Position numbers and translations under genes: made by a program. 64,000 nt of DNA from NCBI GenBank assembly GCA_963699545.1, contig CAVOUE010000005.1, positions 288,001 to 352,000 of the forward strand, read 5' to 3'. The stretch comes from Nitrospirota bacterium. GTDB taxonomy: Bacteria > Nitrospirota > Thermodesulfovibrionia > Thermodesulfovibrionales > UBA9159. The notes beneath the pieces were generated by a model. The model was not told where the DNA came from and searched no databases. It was given only the letters and a program-made list of their open reading frames with translations. This document shows, piece by piece, positions 57,654 to 63,210 of the stretch (position 1 is the stretch's first letter; the number at the start of each line of letters is the position of its first letter).

Positions 57654-58739
57654 ATGAGTAAGATCAAGGATGACACAGACAGTATCTGGACCAGTCTGGC
57701 GAAAAAGGGGGTAACCAGAAGGGACTTCGTCAAGTTCTGCACGGCCATGGCCGCCACCCTGGCCCTTCCCTCGAGCTTTGTCCCGAGGATCGTCGAAGCC
57801 CTCGAGAAGAAGCAGAAACCCTATGCGGTCTGGCTTGAGTTCCAGGATTGCTGCGGGGATTCCGAATCCATGCTTCGGGCAACGAAGCCGACCATCGCAG
57901 AGGTCGTTTTGGACGTCATCTCCCTTGAGTACCACGAGACCATCATGGCGGGTTCAGGAAAACAGGCGGAAAAGGCCCTCATGGACGTGGTCAAGAACCA
58001 GAAAGGCAAGTATATCGCCATCGTCGAGGGAGCGATCCCCATGAAGGACGGAGGGATTTACTGCACCATCGGCGGCAGATCCGCACTTGACATTGCCAAG
58101 GAAGTCTGCGGGAATGCGGCCATGACACTGGCCGTGGGATCATGCTCCAGCTGGGGAGGAATTGCCAGCGCAAAACCTAATCCCACAGGTGCGGTCGGAA
58201 TAGGGGCTGCGGTCCCCGGCATCACCTATGTGAACCTGCCCGGCTGCCCGATGAACGTCGAGAACGTGACTGCCACCGTGGTCCACTACCTCACGTTCGG
58301 CTCTCTGCCCGCCCTTGATGGCGAGCACCGTCCGCTTTTCGCCCATGGAAAGATCATTCATAATAATTGCGAGAGAAGGCCGCACTTTGATGCAGGCCAG
58401 TTTGTGAGGAAATGGGGCGACGAAGGGCACAGAAAAGGCTGGTGCCTCTATGAGATGGGCTGCAAGGGGCCCGAGGCGCACTTTAATTGCCCCACGATAC
58501 GGTGGAACGGAGGAACGAGTTGGCCTGTACAGGCAGGACATCCCTGCTTTGCATGTGCCAGCACCAACAACTGGGATGCCTTCGGACCTATTTACAGCAG
58601 GCTTGAGAACGTGCCGGGAGCCGGATATCAGACCACTGCCGACAAGATCGGGGCCACTGTTGCCGCAGTTGCAGCAGCCGGTGTGGCTGCGCATGCGGTG
58701 ATCCGTGCAGCAAAAGGGAAACCGGACAAAGAAGAGTAA
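57654..58739 (+). CDS. Group 1 [NiFe] hydrogenase small subunit
   Basis: Tat motif TRRDFVK; QDCCGDSES, G.C...GG, PGCP, H.NC.RR, CLY..GCKGP, GHPC..C; C-terminal TM anchor. Confidence 0.93.
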   Translation: MSKIKDDTDSIWTSLAKKGVTRRDFVKFCTAMAATLALPSSFVPRIVEALEKKQKPYAVWLEFQDCCGDSESMLRATKPTIAEVVLDVISLEYHETIMAGSGKQAEKALMDVVKNQKGKYIAIVEGAIPMKDGGIYCTIGGRSALDIAKEVCGNAAMTLAVGSCSSWGGIASAKPNPTGAVGIGAAVPGITYVNLPGCPMNVENVTATVVHYLTFGSLPALDGEHRPLFAHGKIIHNNCERRPHFDAGQFVRKWGDEGHRKGWCLYEMGCKGPEAHFNCPTIRWNGGTSWPVQAGHPCFACASTNNWDAFGPIYSRLENVPGAGYQTTADKIGATVAAVAAAGVAAHAVIRAAKGKPDKEE

Positions 58740-58768: not shown

Positions 58769-60478
58769 ATGGCAAAAATAGCGATTGATCCCATCACACG
58801 GATTGAAGGACACCTGAGGATCGAGGCACAGGTGGACGGCGGCAAGGTCACTGATGCATGGTCATCCGGCACCATGTGGCGAGGCATCGAGATCATTCTG
58901 AAAGGGAGGGATCCGAGGGAGTGCTGGGCGCTCACCTCGCGAATATGAGGGGTCTGAACAACGGTCCACGCACAGTGCTCCGTGAGAGCCGTGGAAAATG
59001 CCTTAGGGATTACGATAACCGATAACGCAAGGATCATCAGGAACATCATCAATGGTATTCAGTATGTTCAGGACCATGTAATACATTTCTATCACCTGCA
59101 CGCCCTTGACTGGGTCGATGTGGTCAGCGCCCTGAAGGCCGACCCCGCAAAGACAGCGGCCCTTGCCCAGTCCATTTCCGACTGGCCGAACTCTTCACCG
59201 ACTTACTTTAAGGCGGTCCACGGAAAGGTGAAGACGCTTGTAGAGAGCGGTCAGCTCGGCATCTTTGCCAGCGGATACTGGGGACATCCGGCATACAAGC
59301 TTCCGCCTGAGGCGAATCTCATGGCGGTTGCCCATTATCTGGAAGCCCTGGACTGGCAGCGTGATGTAATAAGGATGCAGGCGATGCTCGGCGCCAAGAA
59401 CCCCCACCCGCAGACGTGGCTGGTGGGTGGTATGGCCATCCCCATTGACCCCAATAGTCAGAATGCCATCAACGCAGGAAGCATCGCCCTCATGAAGGAC
59501 CTGGCGAAGAAGGCCCTTGCCTTTGTTGAGAAGGTCTATATCCCCGATCTCCTCGCGGTTGCGTCCTTCTATAAGGATTGGGCGGCGATCGGTGGCGGTG
59601 TGGGGAATTATCTCTCCTACGGCGAGTTCCAGAACGACAATGTGAGCAATACCACAAACGTCTGGCTTCCTGGTGGAGTCATCAGGAACAAGAACCTGGC
59701 CAAGGTCGAGCCCGTTGACCAGAAGCAGGTCACTGAAGACGTTGCACATGCCTGGTATAAATATGCGGACGGTGATGACAAGGCAAAGCATCCATGGGAC
59801 GGCGAGACCACCCCCAACTATACCGGTCCGAAACCGCCCTATGAATTCCTTGATACCAATAAAAAGTACACCTGGGTCAAGGGTATCCGGTACAACGGAA
59901 TGTCCACCGAGGTGGGGCCGCTTTCGAGGATGCTCATCGCGTACGCATCGGGACATAAGCGTGTCAAAGAAGTTGTCGGGCTTGTGCTCAGCAAATTGGG
60001 CGTCGGGCCCGCCGCATTGTTCTCTACCCTTGGCCGCACCGCTGCGAGGGGCATAGAGACCCTTGTGACCGCAGAGATGCTCCCGGTCTGGATCGATGAC
60101 CTGGCGGCCAAGATCAAGAGCGGAGATATTCGTATCCATAATAACGAGAAGTGGGACCCGTCCACCTGGCCGAAGGAGGCAAAAGGGTTCGGCTTCCACG
60201 AGGCACCCCGCGGTGCCCTTGGCCACTGGGTAGTGATAAAGGACGGTAAGGTCGCCAACTACCAGTGTGTCGTCCCGGGCGGGTGGAACTCTTCCCCCAG
60301 AGATGCAAAGGGTCAGAGGGGCCCGTACGAAGCAGCTCTTATGGACACCCCGATCAAGGACCCCAATAAGCCGCTGGAAGTCTTGAGGACGATCCATTCC
60401 TTCGACCCGTGCATGGCGTGTGCGATCCATGTAGTAGACACCAACATGGATGAGATCATAAAAGTCAGGGTGGTATAG
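58769..60478 (+). CDS. Group 1 [NiFe] hydrogenase large subunit with two in-frame TGA codons in the L1 motif
   Basis: [22 protein letters not shown]...RG.E..L.GRDPR...RI*GV*TTVH (TGA 58946 and 58955), in frame with the rest; [11 protein letters not shown]2 [10 protein letters not shown]. Confidence 0.9.
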
Positions 60479-60487
60479 GAGGCAGAC

Positions 60488-61130
60488 ATGTTAAAAAAGG
60501 TGTATGTCTGGGAGTTTCCTGTAAGGTTGACTCACTGGCTTAACTTCGTGACGATCCTGACGTTGGCAACCACCGGTTTTTACATCGGCGCTCCCTTTAT
60601 CCGGGCCATCAACGAGGACCAGTTGATCATGGCGCAATTCCGGTTCGTCCATTTCGTGGCTGCGTATGTCTTTGCGGTGAGCGTCCTGGTGAGGATCTAC
60701 TGGTGGTTTGCCGGTAACCGGTATTCACGCTGGAACCAGTTCTTGCCGGTGAGCTCTGAGCGGTGGGAGAGCTGTATCGAAACGACCAAGTTCTACTGTT
60801 TTGTCCGTCAGAAATTTCCTGACGTTGCGGGACATACCGGGATCGCGGGAATAACCTATTTCGTGATGTTCATGCTCTTCCTCACCGAGATCGTCACGGG
60901 GTTTGCGCTCTACTCACAGAGTCATGTGGGAAGCTTGTGGACGCGTGCTGGGAGGCTGGCTCTTTGTGATACTCAACCAGGGCGCGGTGCGGCTTATCCA
61001 CCACTGCATCATGTGGGTTATCGCTGTTTTCCTTATCCTCCATATCTACATCGGGTGGCACAATGACATGATAGAGAGGAACGGCCTTATGAGTTCGATC
61101 TTCAGCGGATACAAGTCTCTGAAGGAATAA
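60488..61130 (+). CDS. Ni/Fe hydrogenase cytochrome b subunit (frameshift near 60945)
   Basis: VYVWE.PVRL.HW, R.VHF, R..HH..MW, .HIY, SSIFSGYK. Confidence 0.88.
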
Positions 61131-61137
61131 AGGGATA

Positions 61138-61635
61138 TTGACTACTACCGTCTTAGGTCTGGGCAATATCCTGTTACGCGACGAGGGAGTCGGGGTCCAT
61201 GCGGTAAACGCCATCAAGGAACGCTATGCGTTTCCTCCCGATGTGGAGGTCATTGATGGCGGGACACTGGGCCTCGACCTCCTTCCTCTTATCGAAAAAA
61301 GGGACAGGCTCCTCTTTGTGGATGCGGTGGACTTCGGGAAGGAACCCGGCCACGTGGGTGTCATCGATGATGATGCCATCCCCTCTACCCTCATGGCAAA
61401 AATGTCGGTCCACCACATCGGTCTCTCCGACGTGCTCTTTGCCGCAAAACTCCTGGACATAAAACCGGTAAAAGTGCGCCTTATCGGCATTCAGCCGAAG
61501 TCCCTTGAGGTTGGCCTTGATATGACGGAGTGCATCAGTGGTAAAATGGAAGTGATCATCGGCTTGATCCTCGAAACGTTGAAGGAGTGGAACATAGAAT
61601 GTGCCTCGCGGTCCCTTCAGAAATTGTCCGCATAA
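61138..61635 (+). CDS. Hydrogenase maturation protease (HyaD/HybD family)
   Basis: GLGNILL.DEGVGV, IDGGT.G, VDAV, SVH. Confidence 0.92.
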   Translation: MTTTVLGLGNILLRDEGVGVHAVNAIKERYAFPPDVEVIDGGTLGLDLLPLIEKRDRLLFVDAVDFGKEPGHVGVIDDDAIPSTLMAKMSVHHIGLSDVLFAAKLLDIKPVKVRLIGIQPKSLEVGLDMTECISGKMEVIIGLILETLKEWNIECASRSLQKLSA

Positions 61636-61844
61636 CCGACCTCATGGCCACCATTGATGTGAACGGCGCGAGGAGGGATATCAGCCTCATGCTTCTCCCG
61701 GAAGAAGTTCAGGTGGGAGATTTCGTGATCGTTCACGCGGGCTTTGCCATTCAAAAGATCGACAGGGAGGCCGGCCATGAGGCCCTCCGGCTGATTAAAG
61801 AGCTGGTGGAATCCGAAGAGTTCAAGGCAGAATACATGGAGTGA
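61599..61844 (+). CDS. hypC: Hydrogenase chaperone HypC/HybG
   Basis: MCLAVP, GDFVIVHAGFAI. Confidence 0.93.
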   Translation: MCLAVPSEIVRITDLMATIDVNGARRDISLMLLPEEVQVGDFVIVHAGFAIQKIDREAGHEALRLIKELVESEEFKAEYME

Positions 61845-62435
61845 AACGCTATATCCTTGCGATATCGGGAGCCAGCGGCTCTGTGTTCGGCATCAGGGTC
61901 CTCGAATCCCTCATCAGGAAGTCAGAAGTGCATCTCATCATCTCGTCCCAGTCGTTTCCCATCATACACCATGAGACCGGCATTGACTGGTCGGGGAAGA
62001 GCGTCAGAGCAATTCAGGAAAAGATCAGGGCCCACTTCAACTCCCGCGCGATCCACTACCACGCAGAAACCGACCTCGCTGCCCCGCTTTCGAGCGGCTC
62101 GTTCATAACAGACGGCATGCTTGTGGTGCCGTGTTCGATGAAGACCCTCTCCGGCATCGCGCAGGGCTACGCGAACAACCTCACCGAACGGGCAGCGGAC
62201 GTCACGATAAAAGAGGGCAGACCACTGCTCCTTGCTCCCCGGGAAATGCCGTTCAGCGCGATCCATCTTGAGAACATGCTGAAGCTGGCAAGACTCGGGG
62301 TGAAGATAGCGCCACCTGTTCCCGGCGTTCTACCAGAAGCCGAAGAAGCTCGACGATATCGTCGATTTCGTGGCGGGGAAGATACTCGATTCCTTCTCGG
62401 TCGAACACGATCTCTTCAAAAGATGGGGCGGCTGA
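61841..62435 (+). CDS. ubiX: Flavin prenyltransferase UbiX (frameshift near 62325)
   Basis: SGASG, SSGSF, PCSMKTL, RAADV.IKE.R, REMP...HLENM; C-term FY..P...FKRWGG in next frame. Confidence 0.9.
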
Positions 62436-62437
62436 GA
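62424..62437 (+). repeat. Direct repeat copy 1 (TGGGGCGGCTGAGA), 3' end of ubiX
   Basis: Identical to 63199-63212. Confidence 0.7.
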
Positions 62438-62552
62438 CAGCAAACCATCACACGTTTAACGTAGCCGGCCCCCGTTCTTCTCTCCAGTCAGTATGGTGTC
62501 CCGGGAATCAAAGTTGCTCCCTGAATGAAGAAGTTGCCTCACATTTTCGACA

Positions 62553-62581
62553 TTGACAAAAAAGCCATACTGTTTTACGAT
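62553..62581 (+). promoter_or_regulatory. Sigma70-type promoter of vapBC-like pair
   Basis: TTGACA-17 bp-TACGAT. Confidence 0.65.
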
Positions 62582-62611
62582 TGTATTATCGATAGGAGCG
62601 AAGGAGGACAA

Positions 62612-62818
62612 ATGGCAACGACCACGATATCTCCAAAATTTCAGGTAGTCATACCGAAAGAGGTCAGAAAGAAGCTCGATCTGAAATCCGGGCAAAAGAT
62701 GACGGTCATCACCAAGGGAGGCATCGTCTACTTCATCCCCGAGAAGCCCATAGAGGCGTTCAGAGGGTTTCTGAAAGGCATGGCTACGGGGAACGTCAGG
62801 GAGGACGAAGAACGCTGA
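62612..62818 (+). CDS. AbrB/MazE-type antitoxin
   Basis: TISPKFQVVIPKEVR..L....G; RBS AAGGAGG. Confidence 0.88.
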   Translation: MATTTISPKFQVVIPKEVRKKLDLKSGQKMTVITKGGIVYFIPEKPIEAFRGFLKGMATGNVREDEER

Positions 62819-63210
62819 TGCTTCTCATCGATTCCTCCGGATGGATCGAGTTCTTCACCGATGGTCCTCTGGCAAGAGAATATGCAAAGCACCTGAAAGA
62901 TCCGGCAAGAATAATAACGCCCACAGTTGTTCTTTACGAGGTCTACAGGAAGATAAAGCGCGAAAAGACGGAAGAACAGGCCCTCCTGGCTGTTTCCTTC
63001 ATGAACAGGACATCAGTGATCGACCTCAGCGAAAGCATTGCGCTCCTTGCTGCTGACCTCAGTATTCAAAACTCGCTGCCGATGGCCGACGCAATGGTAT
63101 ATGCCACCGCCATGGAAAACAATTGCAGCGTTGTCACCAGTGATGAACATTTCAAGAAGCTTGGTAAGGTAATCTTCGTTCTCCTGAGAATTCGCCATTG
63201 GGGCGGCTGA
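62818..63210 (+). CDS. VapC-family PIN toxin
   Basis: IDSSGWIEFF, .LYEV, L.MADA..YATA, TSD.HF. Confidence 0.88.
   Translation: MLLIDSSGWIEFFTDGPLAREYAKHLKDPARIITPTVVLYEVYRKIKREKTEEQALLAVSFMNRTSVIDLSESIALLAADLSIQNSLPMADAMVYATAMENNCSVVTSDEHFKKLGKVIFVLLRIRHWGG

Follow-up and report, generated by a model that had tools for sequence, protein, structure and literature searches.

The metal ligands of [NiFe] hydrogenases are provided by two motifs of the large subunit, L1 (RxCGxCxxxH) in the N-terminal part and L2 (DPCxxCxxH) in the C-terminal part, and in some of these enzymes selenocysteine (Sec, U) takes a ligand position. HydDB gives [NiFeSe] variants for subgroups 1a, 3a and 3c only (Table 1, PMC5037454). 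An in silico survey by Takano, Inoue, Aono, Ochi and Mihara (Front Microbiol 2026, PMC13582414) describes, in the accessible part of the article, CXXU, UXXC and UXXU forms of the N-terminal motif in Group 4 hydrogenases. There are 16 UXXU enzymes among 47 Sec variants, ~0.2% of Group 4, and a single Sec insertion sequence (SECIS) is suggested to serve both codons of these genes. Groups 1–3 were excluded from that survey, with Sec in Groups 1 and 3 stated to be C-terminal save for two Group 1 and one Group 3 enzymes of the CXXU type; the N-terminal CXXU motif of Group 1 is credited there to Baltazar et al. 2011. In E. coli Hyd-1, each metal ligand of which was exchanged for Sec, the variants C76U and C79U showed 3% and 13% of native activity, and O2 tolerance was not raised, according to the available portion of Evans et al. 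(PNAS 2021, PMC8020662). Here we describe a Group 1 large-subunit gene in which both L1 cysteine codons are TGA. It lies in a 64,000-nucleotide (nt) stretch of a Nitrospirota genome of the order Thermodesulfovibrionales (assembly GCA_963699545.1, contig CAVOUE010000005.1, positions 288,001–352,000), referred to as the window, to which all plain coordinates refer. An earlier reading made from the letters of the window alone (the sequence-only reading) took Sec of known [NiFeSe] enzymes to occur in L2 only, a view that is outdated by the CXXU (Groups 1 and 3) and UXXU (Group 4) forms reported in silico, as far as that survey (PMC13582414) is accessible.

The gene occupies 58769–60478 of the forward strand (569 codons), and its translation contains internal stops at codons 60 and 63 only. 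The sequence-only reading placed the start at 58769 and not at 58982, and this holds, with AGGAGG preceding the ATG at 58769 and 59 intact codons before the first TGA; the open reading frame (ORF) given by translation table 11 begins at the GTG at 58982. Positions 58940–58969 read cga ata tga ggg gtc tga aca acg gtc cac, which gives R-I-U-G-V-U-T-T-V-H for L1 if UGA is read as Sec. Re-reading and translation confirm the reported TGA at codons 60 (UGA1, 58946–58948, forward strand) and 63 (UGA2, 58955–58957, forward strand) with no further lesion. UGA1 is aligned to the first L1 cysteine, by homology the terminal Ni ligand, and UGA2 to the second, by homology the ligand bridging Ni and Fe, roles that we take in part from the accessible text of Evans et al. 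2021 (PMC8020662). The alignment with the RICGVCT ligand motif of the solved Group 1 enzymes 3myr_B and 4c3o_A is gapless, and all four ligand positions of L1 and L2 are present, the two of L1 as UGA. The L2 motif DPCMACAIH (60404–60430, forward strand) was correctly described as ordinary: its codons are GAC CCG TGC ATG GCG TGT, and it is followed, after H554, by a 15-residue extension of the kind removed by the maturation protease. With TGA read as a residue, the product matches PF00374 with 780 bits over residues 38–554. The top solved relatives all belong to Group 1 (3myr_B, 720 bits; Salmonella Hyd-5, 677; E. coli Hyd-1, 616; 4c3o_A also matches), and NuoD/Group 4-like models reach at most 36.6 bits. 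Judged by this homology, the gene is the large subunit of a Group 1 [NiFe] hydrogenase, the respiratory uptake type exported by the twin-arginine (Tat) pathway. A Cys-type homologue, P0036, 83% identical over the first 200 residues, carries the source label 'hydrogenase, group If', which is a label only. Further Cys-type relatives occur in Geobacter, Roseiflexus and Acidobacteriota, lineages that we take to be typical for subgroup 1f. A protein query of the assembly returned no second [NiFe] large subunit, the only other match being weak (E 5.2e-4, 27% identity).

The TGA pair is conserved among relatives. A first sample comprised 41 genomes, that of the source organism and those of 40 relatives from its order. 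Of these, 25 have an orthologue with two, and only two, in-frame TGAs, and the pair is found at identical codons in 25 of 30 loci, the remaining five having TGC or TGT. A wider scan took one genome per species across bacteria, and its best 80 loci comprise 28 UxxU, 4 CxxU and 48 CxxC forms. By record title, the UxxU hosts are Nitrospirota/Thermodesulfovibrionales, Chloroflexota (Anaerolineae, Thermoflexus) and a Methylomirabilia metagenome-assembled genome (MAG), with further UxxU MAGs labelled Thermodesulfobacteriota or Proteobacteria. Together, 110 loci gave 108 full-length genes (L100 and L106 are truncated and were left out; G, C and L numbers are our handles for genomes, contigs and loci), none of which has an extra in-frame stop, and removal of four duplicates left 104 sequences, namely 48 UxxU, 4 CxxU and 52 CxxC. 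Across the order, a close orthologue (E ≤1e-200) was found in 143 of 317 genomes. The two-TGA form is present in ~95 of the 317 by a hand count of the 150 rows listed, with three more rows outside the list; the same count gave 19 rows with one TGA and 36 with none or only a non-TGA stop. The TGAs are invariant while nearby synonymous sites vary, and homologues down to 79% identity have TGC or TGT at both codons. The alternation of TGA with TGC or TGT that the sequence-only reading proposed to look for is thus present, as seen in the TGA pair of 25/30 and 28/80 loci and in the TGC/TGT homologues. Its statement that two chance nonsense changes are unlikely is likewise strengthened: with the same codons recurring in these loci, and in 48 distinct sequences with no other lesion, chance is excluded. 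In a protein collection, L1 was found in 119 of the 120 homologues listed and is CxxC in all 119, since the UGA form escapes gene callers. The genus f10/g22, a cultured-type genus (18 genomes matched, several of them single-contig), has the Cys form only, which may explain why the UGA form has gone unnoticed.

A search of read runs with the window listed no RNA run and four DNA runs sharing a small proportion of its words (0.05–0.06), and their contigs derive from relatives rather than from the source organism. Over 58931–58972, these four unrelated metagenome runs show no change at either TGA among the differences listed, 25 more lying outside the list. In the sediment and soil runs, many relatives' contigs match 58931–58972 only, a short stretch comprising the L1 codons and the beginning of the SECIS region, producing a depth peak and 'skip' joints.

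A quick maximum-likelihood tree for these 104 sequences (LG+G4, SH-aLRT support only, midpoint root) was calculated with the two L1 positions masked. Every UxxU sequence falls inside one 65-row group with a support of 92. A 49-row Nitrospirota group contains 40 UxxU, 7 CxxC and 2 CxxU sequences, with a six-row Cys clade nested among the UxxU forms, and at least 10 state changes are required over the tree. On this midpoint-rooted tree, the nesting suggests that the Cys forms may be Sec-to-Cys reversions. When protein positions were screened for covariation with UxxU, a simple filter was passed by position 99 only, which is Tyr in 96% of the UxxU sequences, and no clear active-site co-adaptation was found. 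G004 and G017 (L022 and L023), family members of the source genome, have the Cys form only and account for two of the three sampled genomes without a selD match. As these assemblies are 77% and 79% complete, this is no more than a hint that loss of Sec use is linked to Cys reversion. Outside the group of the window enzyme, a second Group 1 clade, ~53% identical, carries a single TGA at the bridging position (RFCGV-TGA-TTVH) with an ordinary L2 (L142–L145 in G031, G019, G035 and G024). A shorter, apparently cytoplasmic large subunit of the CxxU type (STICGV-TGA-RGVH; L2 DLCFAC) is encoded at L146 and L147 (G027:C1:1016411-1018500 and G039:C1:1930850-1932950), and these two genomes also hold the Cys form of the window enzyme.

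A putative SECIS hairpin is positioned downstream of the TGA pair at 58965–58995 (forward strand), as indicated by the minimum free energy fold of 58958–59000, by covariation and by a minimum in synonymous variation. In the source genome its lower stem, UCCACG/CGUGGA (58965–58970 with 58990–58995), is specific to that genome's family and is topped by an upper stem of 4 bp, GCUC/GAGC (58977–58980 with 58986–58989), and the apical loop CGUGA (58981–58985). A G stands among the first two loop bases, in line with the rule quoted in the accessible part of PMC13582414. For comparison, positions were counted from the U of UGA1 in 52 UGA-type and 52 Cys-type sequences. In the UGA types, positions 30–35 pair with 41–46 around a five-base loop, (C/G)GUG(A/C), in which G37, U38 and G39 are invariant. 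This helix is paired in 84.4% of cells and includes 23 double-change cells (covariation score 0.177 vs 0.094). None of 500 shuffles reaches the observed values, and controls with the helix slid are 35–56% paired. Compensated exchanges are seen at 31/45 (A-U, G-C, U-A), 32/44 (G-C, C-G) and 33/43 (C-G, U-A), whereas in the Cys types the same helix is 58.7% paired, a level attained by 220 of 500 shuffles. A loose contig end in the read runs carries a further compensated variant of the stem, CUGCUC CGUGC GAGCAG. RNAalifold, applied to the 52 UGA-type sequences, gives just three consensus pairs (33–35/41–43), and no Rfam model matches the hairpin region at E up to 10.

Synonymous codon choice is constrained in the same region. 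In the UxxU genes, the gene-wide lowest synonymous-codon entropy is that of the 15-codon window from codon 59 (0.875 bits vs a mean of 1.40), with values of 0.25 vs 1.66 at Thr65 and 0.0 vs 0.86 at Val72 in UxxU and Cys types, respectively; in the Cys types this stretch does not rank with the minima. The stem constrains the protein, and exchanges at codon 70 are matched by exchanges at codon 74 (Ser/Ala, Ala/Gly, Ala/Ser, Cys/Ala). The hairpin that the sequence-only reading drew at 58961–58992 (16–20/43–47 and 22–25/36–39 from UGA1) can be drawn and remains as an alternative fold, but it is not the conserved element: it is pairable in 89.1% of cells, 479 of 500 shuffles are as high, and it shows one double change, whereas the overlapping hairpin described here covaries. 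A mini-hairpin, UGAAC/GUUCA, which includes UGA2, is found in many sequences outside the source genome's family and is broken in that family, in Chloroflexota and in L064. A similar palindrome also arises in Cys types from the Cys-Thr...Val-His codons, and the mini-hairpin was dropped.

Measured from the U of the codon to the start of the apical loop, the distance is 27 nt for UGA2 and 36 nt for UGA1, with 23 and 32 nt, respectively, between codon and loop. At least four other genes of the source genome have an in-frame TGA at known Sec positions, namely FdhA (1546 bits), a second, fragmented FdhA-like gene, an Fdh-like gene and FlpD/MvhD, and the predicted loops of these four begin 22–27 nt from the U of the UGA. 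For the spacer between UGA and loop (23 and 32 nt here), the usual range, as applied by bSECISearch, is 16–37 nt. At 27 nt, the hairpin is placed as usual for UGA2 and 9 nt beyond the usual distance for UGA1. UGA2 is also the codon left as UGA in the CxxU relatives, which share the same hairpin. Of the Sec machinery to which the sequence-only reading had pointed, selA (521 bits), selB (N-terminal and winged-helix parts) and selC were found in the source genome, the last as one tRNA-SeC(UCA) of 98 nt with 72.9 bits and a G discriminator, but selD was not found in the assembly and is present in the congeners. The Cys-type tRNA with a UCA anticodon that it had also considered is missing, as the assembly contains no second UCA or GCA tRNA-Sec-like tRNA; GCA ones are present in relatives.

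On this comparative evidence, the locus is a site of programmed recoding at which two UGAs of a Group 1 [NiFe] hydrogenase gene are conserved. The context-dependent UGA recoding proposed by the sequence-only reading agrees with the conserved pair, the TGC/TGT alternation, the covarying hairpin confined to UGA types and the presence of tRNA-Sec, selA and selB. We consider it likely that the product is a functional enzyme with two Sec residues (UxxU) and that both UGAs are served by one SECIS. The enzyme would be a membrane-bound, periplasmic Group 1 uptake hydrogenase in which Sec replaces both L1 cysteines (R-I-U-G-V-U). SelB bound to the one hairpin would deliver Sec-tRNA(Sec) to both UGAs, and in the mature site Ni would be held by one terminal and one bridging L1 selenolate together with two L2 thiolates. 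We infer Sec rather than Cys at both codons and a single hairpin for the two, the latter as proposed for Group 4 in the accessible text of PMC13582414; the metal bound by each residue is assigned by homology. Several observations weigh against this interpretation. Within the helix, pairs 31/45 and 32/44 are broken in 21 and 13 of the 47 distinct UGA-type rows, respectively. These are read as two sequence variants, either a bulged stem (CCGCCUC...GAGCGG, read as a stem with a single bulged C) or a shifted lower stem (the UCCACG/CGUGGA under GCUC/GAGC of the source genome's family). The thermodynamics of the hairpin are unremarkable (z = -0.91; 35 of 200 shuffles fold equally well), and the centroid fold is the alternative hairpin of the sequence-only reading. 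The distance of 36 nt between UGA1 and the loop exceeds that of every other Sec gene checked in the genome. A selD gene was not found in the 87%-complete assembly (best match 66.9 bits vs a cut-off of 125), and selB lies in two overlapping frames. Of the 41 sampled genomes, 38 (both congeners among them) have selD, a gene that contains an in-frame TGA of its own, and the split of selB is probably an assembly indel, as frames are likewise broken in the EF-Tu-like and cytochrome b genes. A single Sec engineered at either position lowers the activity of Hyd-1 with no evident benefit in the available part of PMC8020662, and tRNA-ReC-like genes, considered below, occur in six of the ten UxxU carriers inspected.

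These tRNA genes bear on what is inserted at the UGAs. One or both codons could be decoded as Cys by tRNA-ReC (SelC*) with SelB and the same SECIS, giving a four-Cys enzyme or a mixture. The six carriers are G001 and G002 (congeners of the source organism), G003, G014, G020 and G025, and their genes (L149, 2291–2386; L150, 2–97; L151, 1934–2029; L152, 3164–3258; L137, 1501–1595; L138, ~1501–1601) are 95–101 nt long and reach 55.6–66.7 bits against the tRNA-Sec model; their anticodon is GCA and their variable arm is long. In the drawn fold of the G020 gene the acceptor stem has 8 bp and the discriminator is U, and by sequence the others have a U discriminator too. A tRNA of the same kind occurs in ~56% of the genomes with UXXU Group 4 hydrogenases, where the same caveat applies (PMC13582414, accessible part). 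In G003 the gene (C8:3433-3528) is found ~0.9 kb downstream of a Cys-type paralogue (C8:4407-6095, L151) on the same strand, the UxxU copy being on a different contig. Insertion of Cys is therefore possible in the lineage. In the source assembly, however, all 15 sub-threshold matches to the tRNA-Sec model are ordinary tRNAs, the sole tRNA-Cys is a normal one of 76 nt, and blastn with the tRNA-ReC-like genes of two relatives finds selC only, weakly. Contig C7 carries the flanks of a congener's tRNA-ReC-like locus, with other sequence in between, and the gene is missing. Three UxxU carriers with 100% estimated completeness (G013, G023 and G034) also have no second tRNA-Sec-like gene. In a hand tally of 151 genomes, in which the second tRNA-Sec-like matches were inspected for six genomes only, such a match, common in the order at about one third of the genomes, was counted in 24 of 65 UxxU carriers vs 25 of 86 others and does not track the motif; an enrichment of tRNA-ReC in UxxU carriers, considered on the same counts, is thus not clear. 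If UGA meant Cys, nothing would keep TGA over TGY through ~30% protein divergence. Of the two options left by the sequence-only reading, double Sec is therefore favoured over UGA-to-Cys recoding for the source genome, because its assembly is without a second UCA or GCA tRNA-Sec-like tRNA, and Cys insertion at one or both codons appears quite unlikely. The same tRNAs allow a reading in which, in this lineage, the pair could work as a switch that depends on selenium: SelB, with one and the same SECIS, would bring Sec-tRNA(Sec) if selenium is available and Cys-charged tRNA-ReC if it is not, and one gene would then yield Ni-Fe sites with zero, one or two selenium ligands, one of them bridging, according to supply. 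For genomes without tRNA-ReC, among them the source genome, the related reading would be an obligate two-selenium enzyme, for which SelB would deliver twice in succession from the one hairpin to UGAs 9 nt apart. We regard this pair of readings as unlikely.

The two remaining explanations deny recoding altogether. In a pseudogene or truncated gene, translation would stop at UGA1, or at most a 498-residue fragment without L1 would be made from the GTG at 58982. The table-11 ORF of 58982–60478, the frameshift in the adjoining cytochrome b gene and the selD gene not found in the assembly would agree with such decay. Yet the 59 codons before UGA1 and all codons after UGA2 are intact, the 48 distinct UxxU genes are all full-length and free of further stops, the TGAs stay invariant amid varying synonymous sites, and a protein query of the assembly gave no other [NiFe] large subunit beyond the one weak match. 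The frameshifts are also found in an EF-Tu-like gene and in selB and look like assembly indels, and a pseudogene is accordingly very improbable. Sequencing or assembly errors in a MAG whose true codons are TGC or TGT might be suspected from the several indel-type breaks of this assembly, but the errors elsewhere in it are indels and not substitutions, the same TGAs recur in dozens of assemblies that were made independently, in separate studies and from different phyla, and contigs from the four unrelated metagenome runs are unchanged at both codons among the differences listed. The probability left to such errors is close to negligible, and the double-Sec enzyme is retained as the preferred reading.

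The large-subunit gene is embedded in a hydrogenase operon on the forward strand. It is preceded by the small subunit (57654–58739; PF14720 and PF01058; TIGR00391, 430 bits), which carries a Tat signal at residues 20–49 (TIGR01409, 24.8 bits vs a cut-off of 16.7). It is followed by a Ni/Fe-hydrogenase b-type cytochrome subunit (60488–61130; PF01292; TIGR02125 at 116.8 bits, slightly below the cut-off of 121.5), a HyaD/HybD-family hydrogenase maturation endopeptidase (61138–61635; PF01750; TIGR00140, 154.7 bits) and a HypC/HupF-family maturation chaperone (61587–61844; PF01455; TIGR00074). The operon had been called otherwise complete, which is correct for the small subunit, the protease and HypC, but the cytochrome b gene, although present, is frameshifted in the assembly near 60948–60952. 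Residues 1–156 and 155–214 of a congener's 214-residue protein align separately to two frames. The gene is unbroken (213–219 residues) in 10 of 10 relatives checked, and the frameshift is probably an assembly indel. The selB, EF-Tu-like and second FdhA-like genes are also split between frames in the assembly (G000, the source genome: selB at G000:C3:318131-320007, L148, in frames of 358 and 312 residues; the others at G000:C12:46281-47161 and G000:C3:431250-434420). With several genes split in this way, the assembly seems to hold indel errors, in line with the remark of the sequence-only reading that the other apparent errors in the window are indels; the breaks in cytochrome b, selB and the EF-Tu-like gene are of that type, and the TGAs are substitutions. 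ARAGORN also reports, at G000:C9:215527-215602, a tRNA of 76 nt whose anticodon has four bases, tttg ('Lys|Gln'), and which may be an odd-loop tRNA-Gln or an indel error. A UbiX-family flavin prenyltransferase ORF lies directly after hypC and overlaps its stop (within 61841–63210), and a MazE-like/PIN toxin-antitoxin pair is located beyond it (62525–62818 and 62818–63210). TGA is the normal stop of the HypC, MazE-like and PIN ORFs of the window, in line with the earlier remark that TGA is a true stop elsewhere.

Group 1 includes the structurally and electrochemically best-studied [NiFe] hydrogenases, and a natural member of the group with Ni bound by selenolates in both terminal and bridging positions, if confirmed, would represent a new active-site chemistry on a tractable scaffold. 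The pair is kept by selection in about one third of the species-level Thermodesulfovibrionales genomes, as well as in Chloroflexota and other MAGs. As gene callers split the UGA form, the hydrogen-oxidizing capacity of these widespread anaerobes is probably under-annotated. With UGAs at 27 and 36 nt from one loop, the gene also provides a natural test of the reach of a single bacterial SECIS, for which the CxxU relatives are single-site controls.

The predicted UxxU selenoproteins of other families share with the window gene two UGAs, presumed to encode Sec, that have two sense codons between them, but they are unrelated redox or metal-binding proteins, and the hydrogenase entries in the tables of these predicted selenoproteins are UxxC only. 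The classical [NiFeSe] hydrogenases of Group 1a (1cc1, 2wpn and 3ze6) are alike in a selenolate ligand to Ni, in the use of SelB and a SECIS and in a Tat-type small subunit. They differ in having Sec as the first ligand of L2 (DPUxxC), where the window gene has DPCMAC, and they match it with only ~300 bits, compared with 720 bits for 3myr_B. The latter, the membrane-bound [NiFe] hydrogenase of Allochromatium vinosum, is the closest solved enzyme (residues 3–554) and has four Cys ligands. The scores against the curated models HysA NF045518 (393.5 vs 780) and NF033181 (544.3 vs 600) are below their cut-offs, and the window gene is not a member of the classical HysA-type [NiFeSe] family. The Hyd-1 variants of Evans et al. 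(PMC8020662, accessible part) concern the same two positions in a Group 1 enzyme with a cytochrome b, but their Sec residues are single and artificial, introduced by way of UAG and EF-Tu, whereas in the window gene both positions are UGA together and selected in nature. The poorer performance of these variants makes the natural conservation of both positions more notable. The Group 1 CXXU enzymes, known to us through the accessible text of PMC13582414, have one Sec at the bridging position, to which the window gene adds a UGA at the terminal Ni ligand; single-Sec CXXU forms account for 4 of the 104 sequences in the window enzyme's own clade. Our literature search, whose reach did not extend to Baltazar et al. 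2011 or to the supplements of PMC13582414, returned nothing on UXXU in hydrogenases of Group 1. UXXU in Group 4 and CXXU in Group 1 are known, and what we have not found in print is the double-Sec Group 1 form and its abundance in Thermodesulfovibrionales and Chloroflexota. The nearest parallel is the Group 4 UXXU enzymes, as far as the available part of PMC13582414 describes them. There, as here, both N-terminal ligand Cys codons are UGA, one SECIS-like hairpin with a G at loop position 1 or 2 lies downstream, the gene co-occurs with Sec machinery, the carriers often have a tRNA-ReC-like gene and the evidence is in silico. Those enzymes are energy-converting and face the cytoplasm, whereas the window enzyme belongs to Group 1 and is accompanied by a Tat-type small subunit and a cytochrome b, and they are 16 UXXU sequences among 47 Sec variants, ~0.2% of Group 4, whereas the form described here is common in its own lineage, with ~95 of the 317 genomes of the order.

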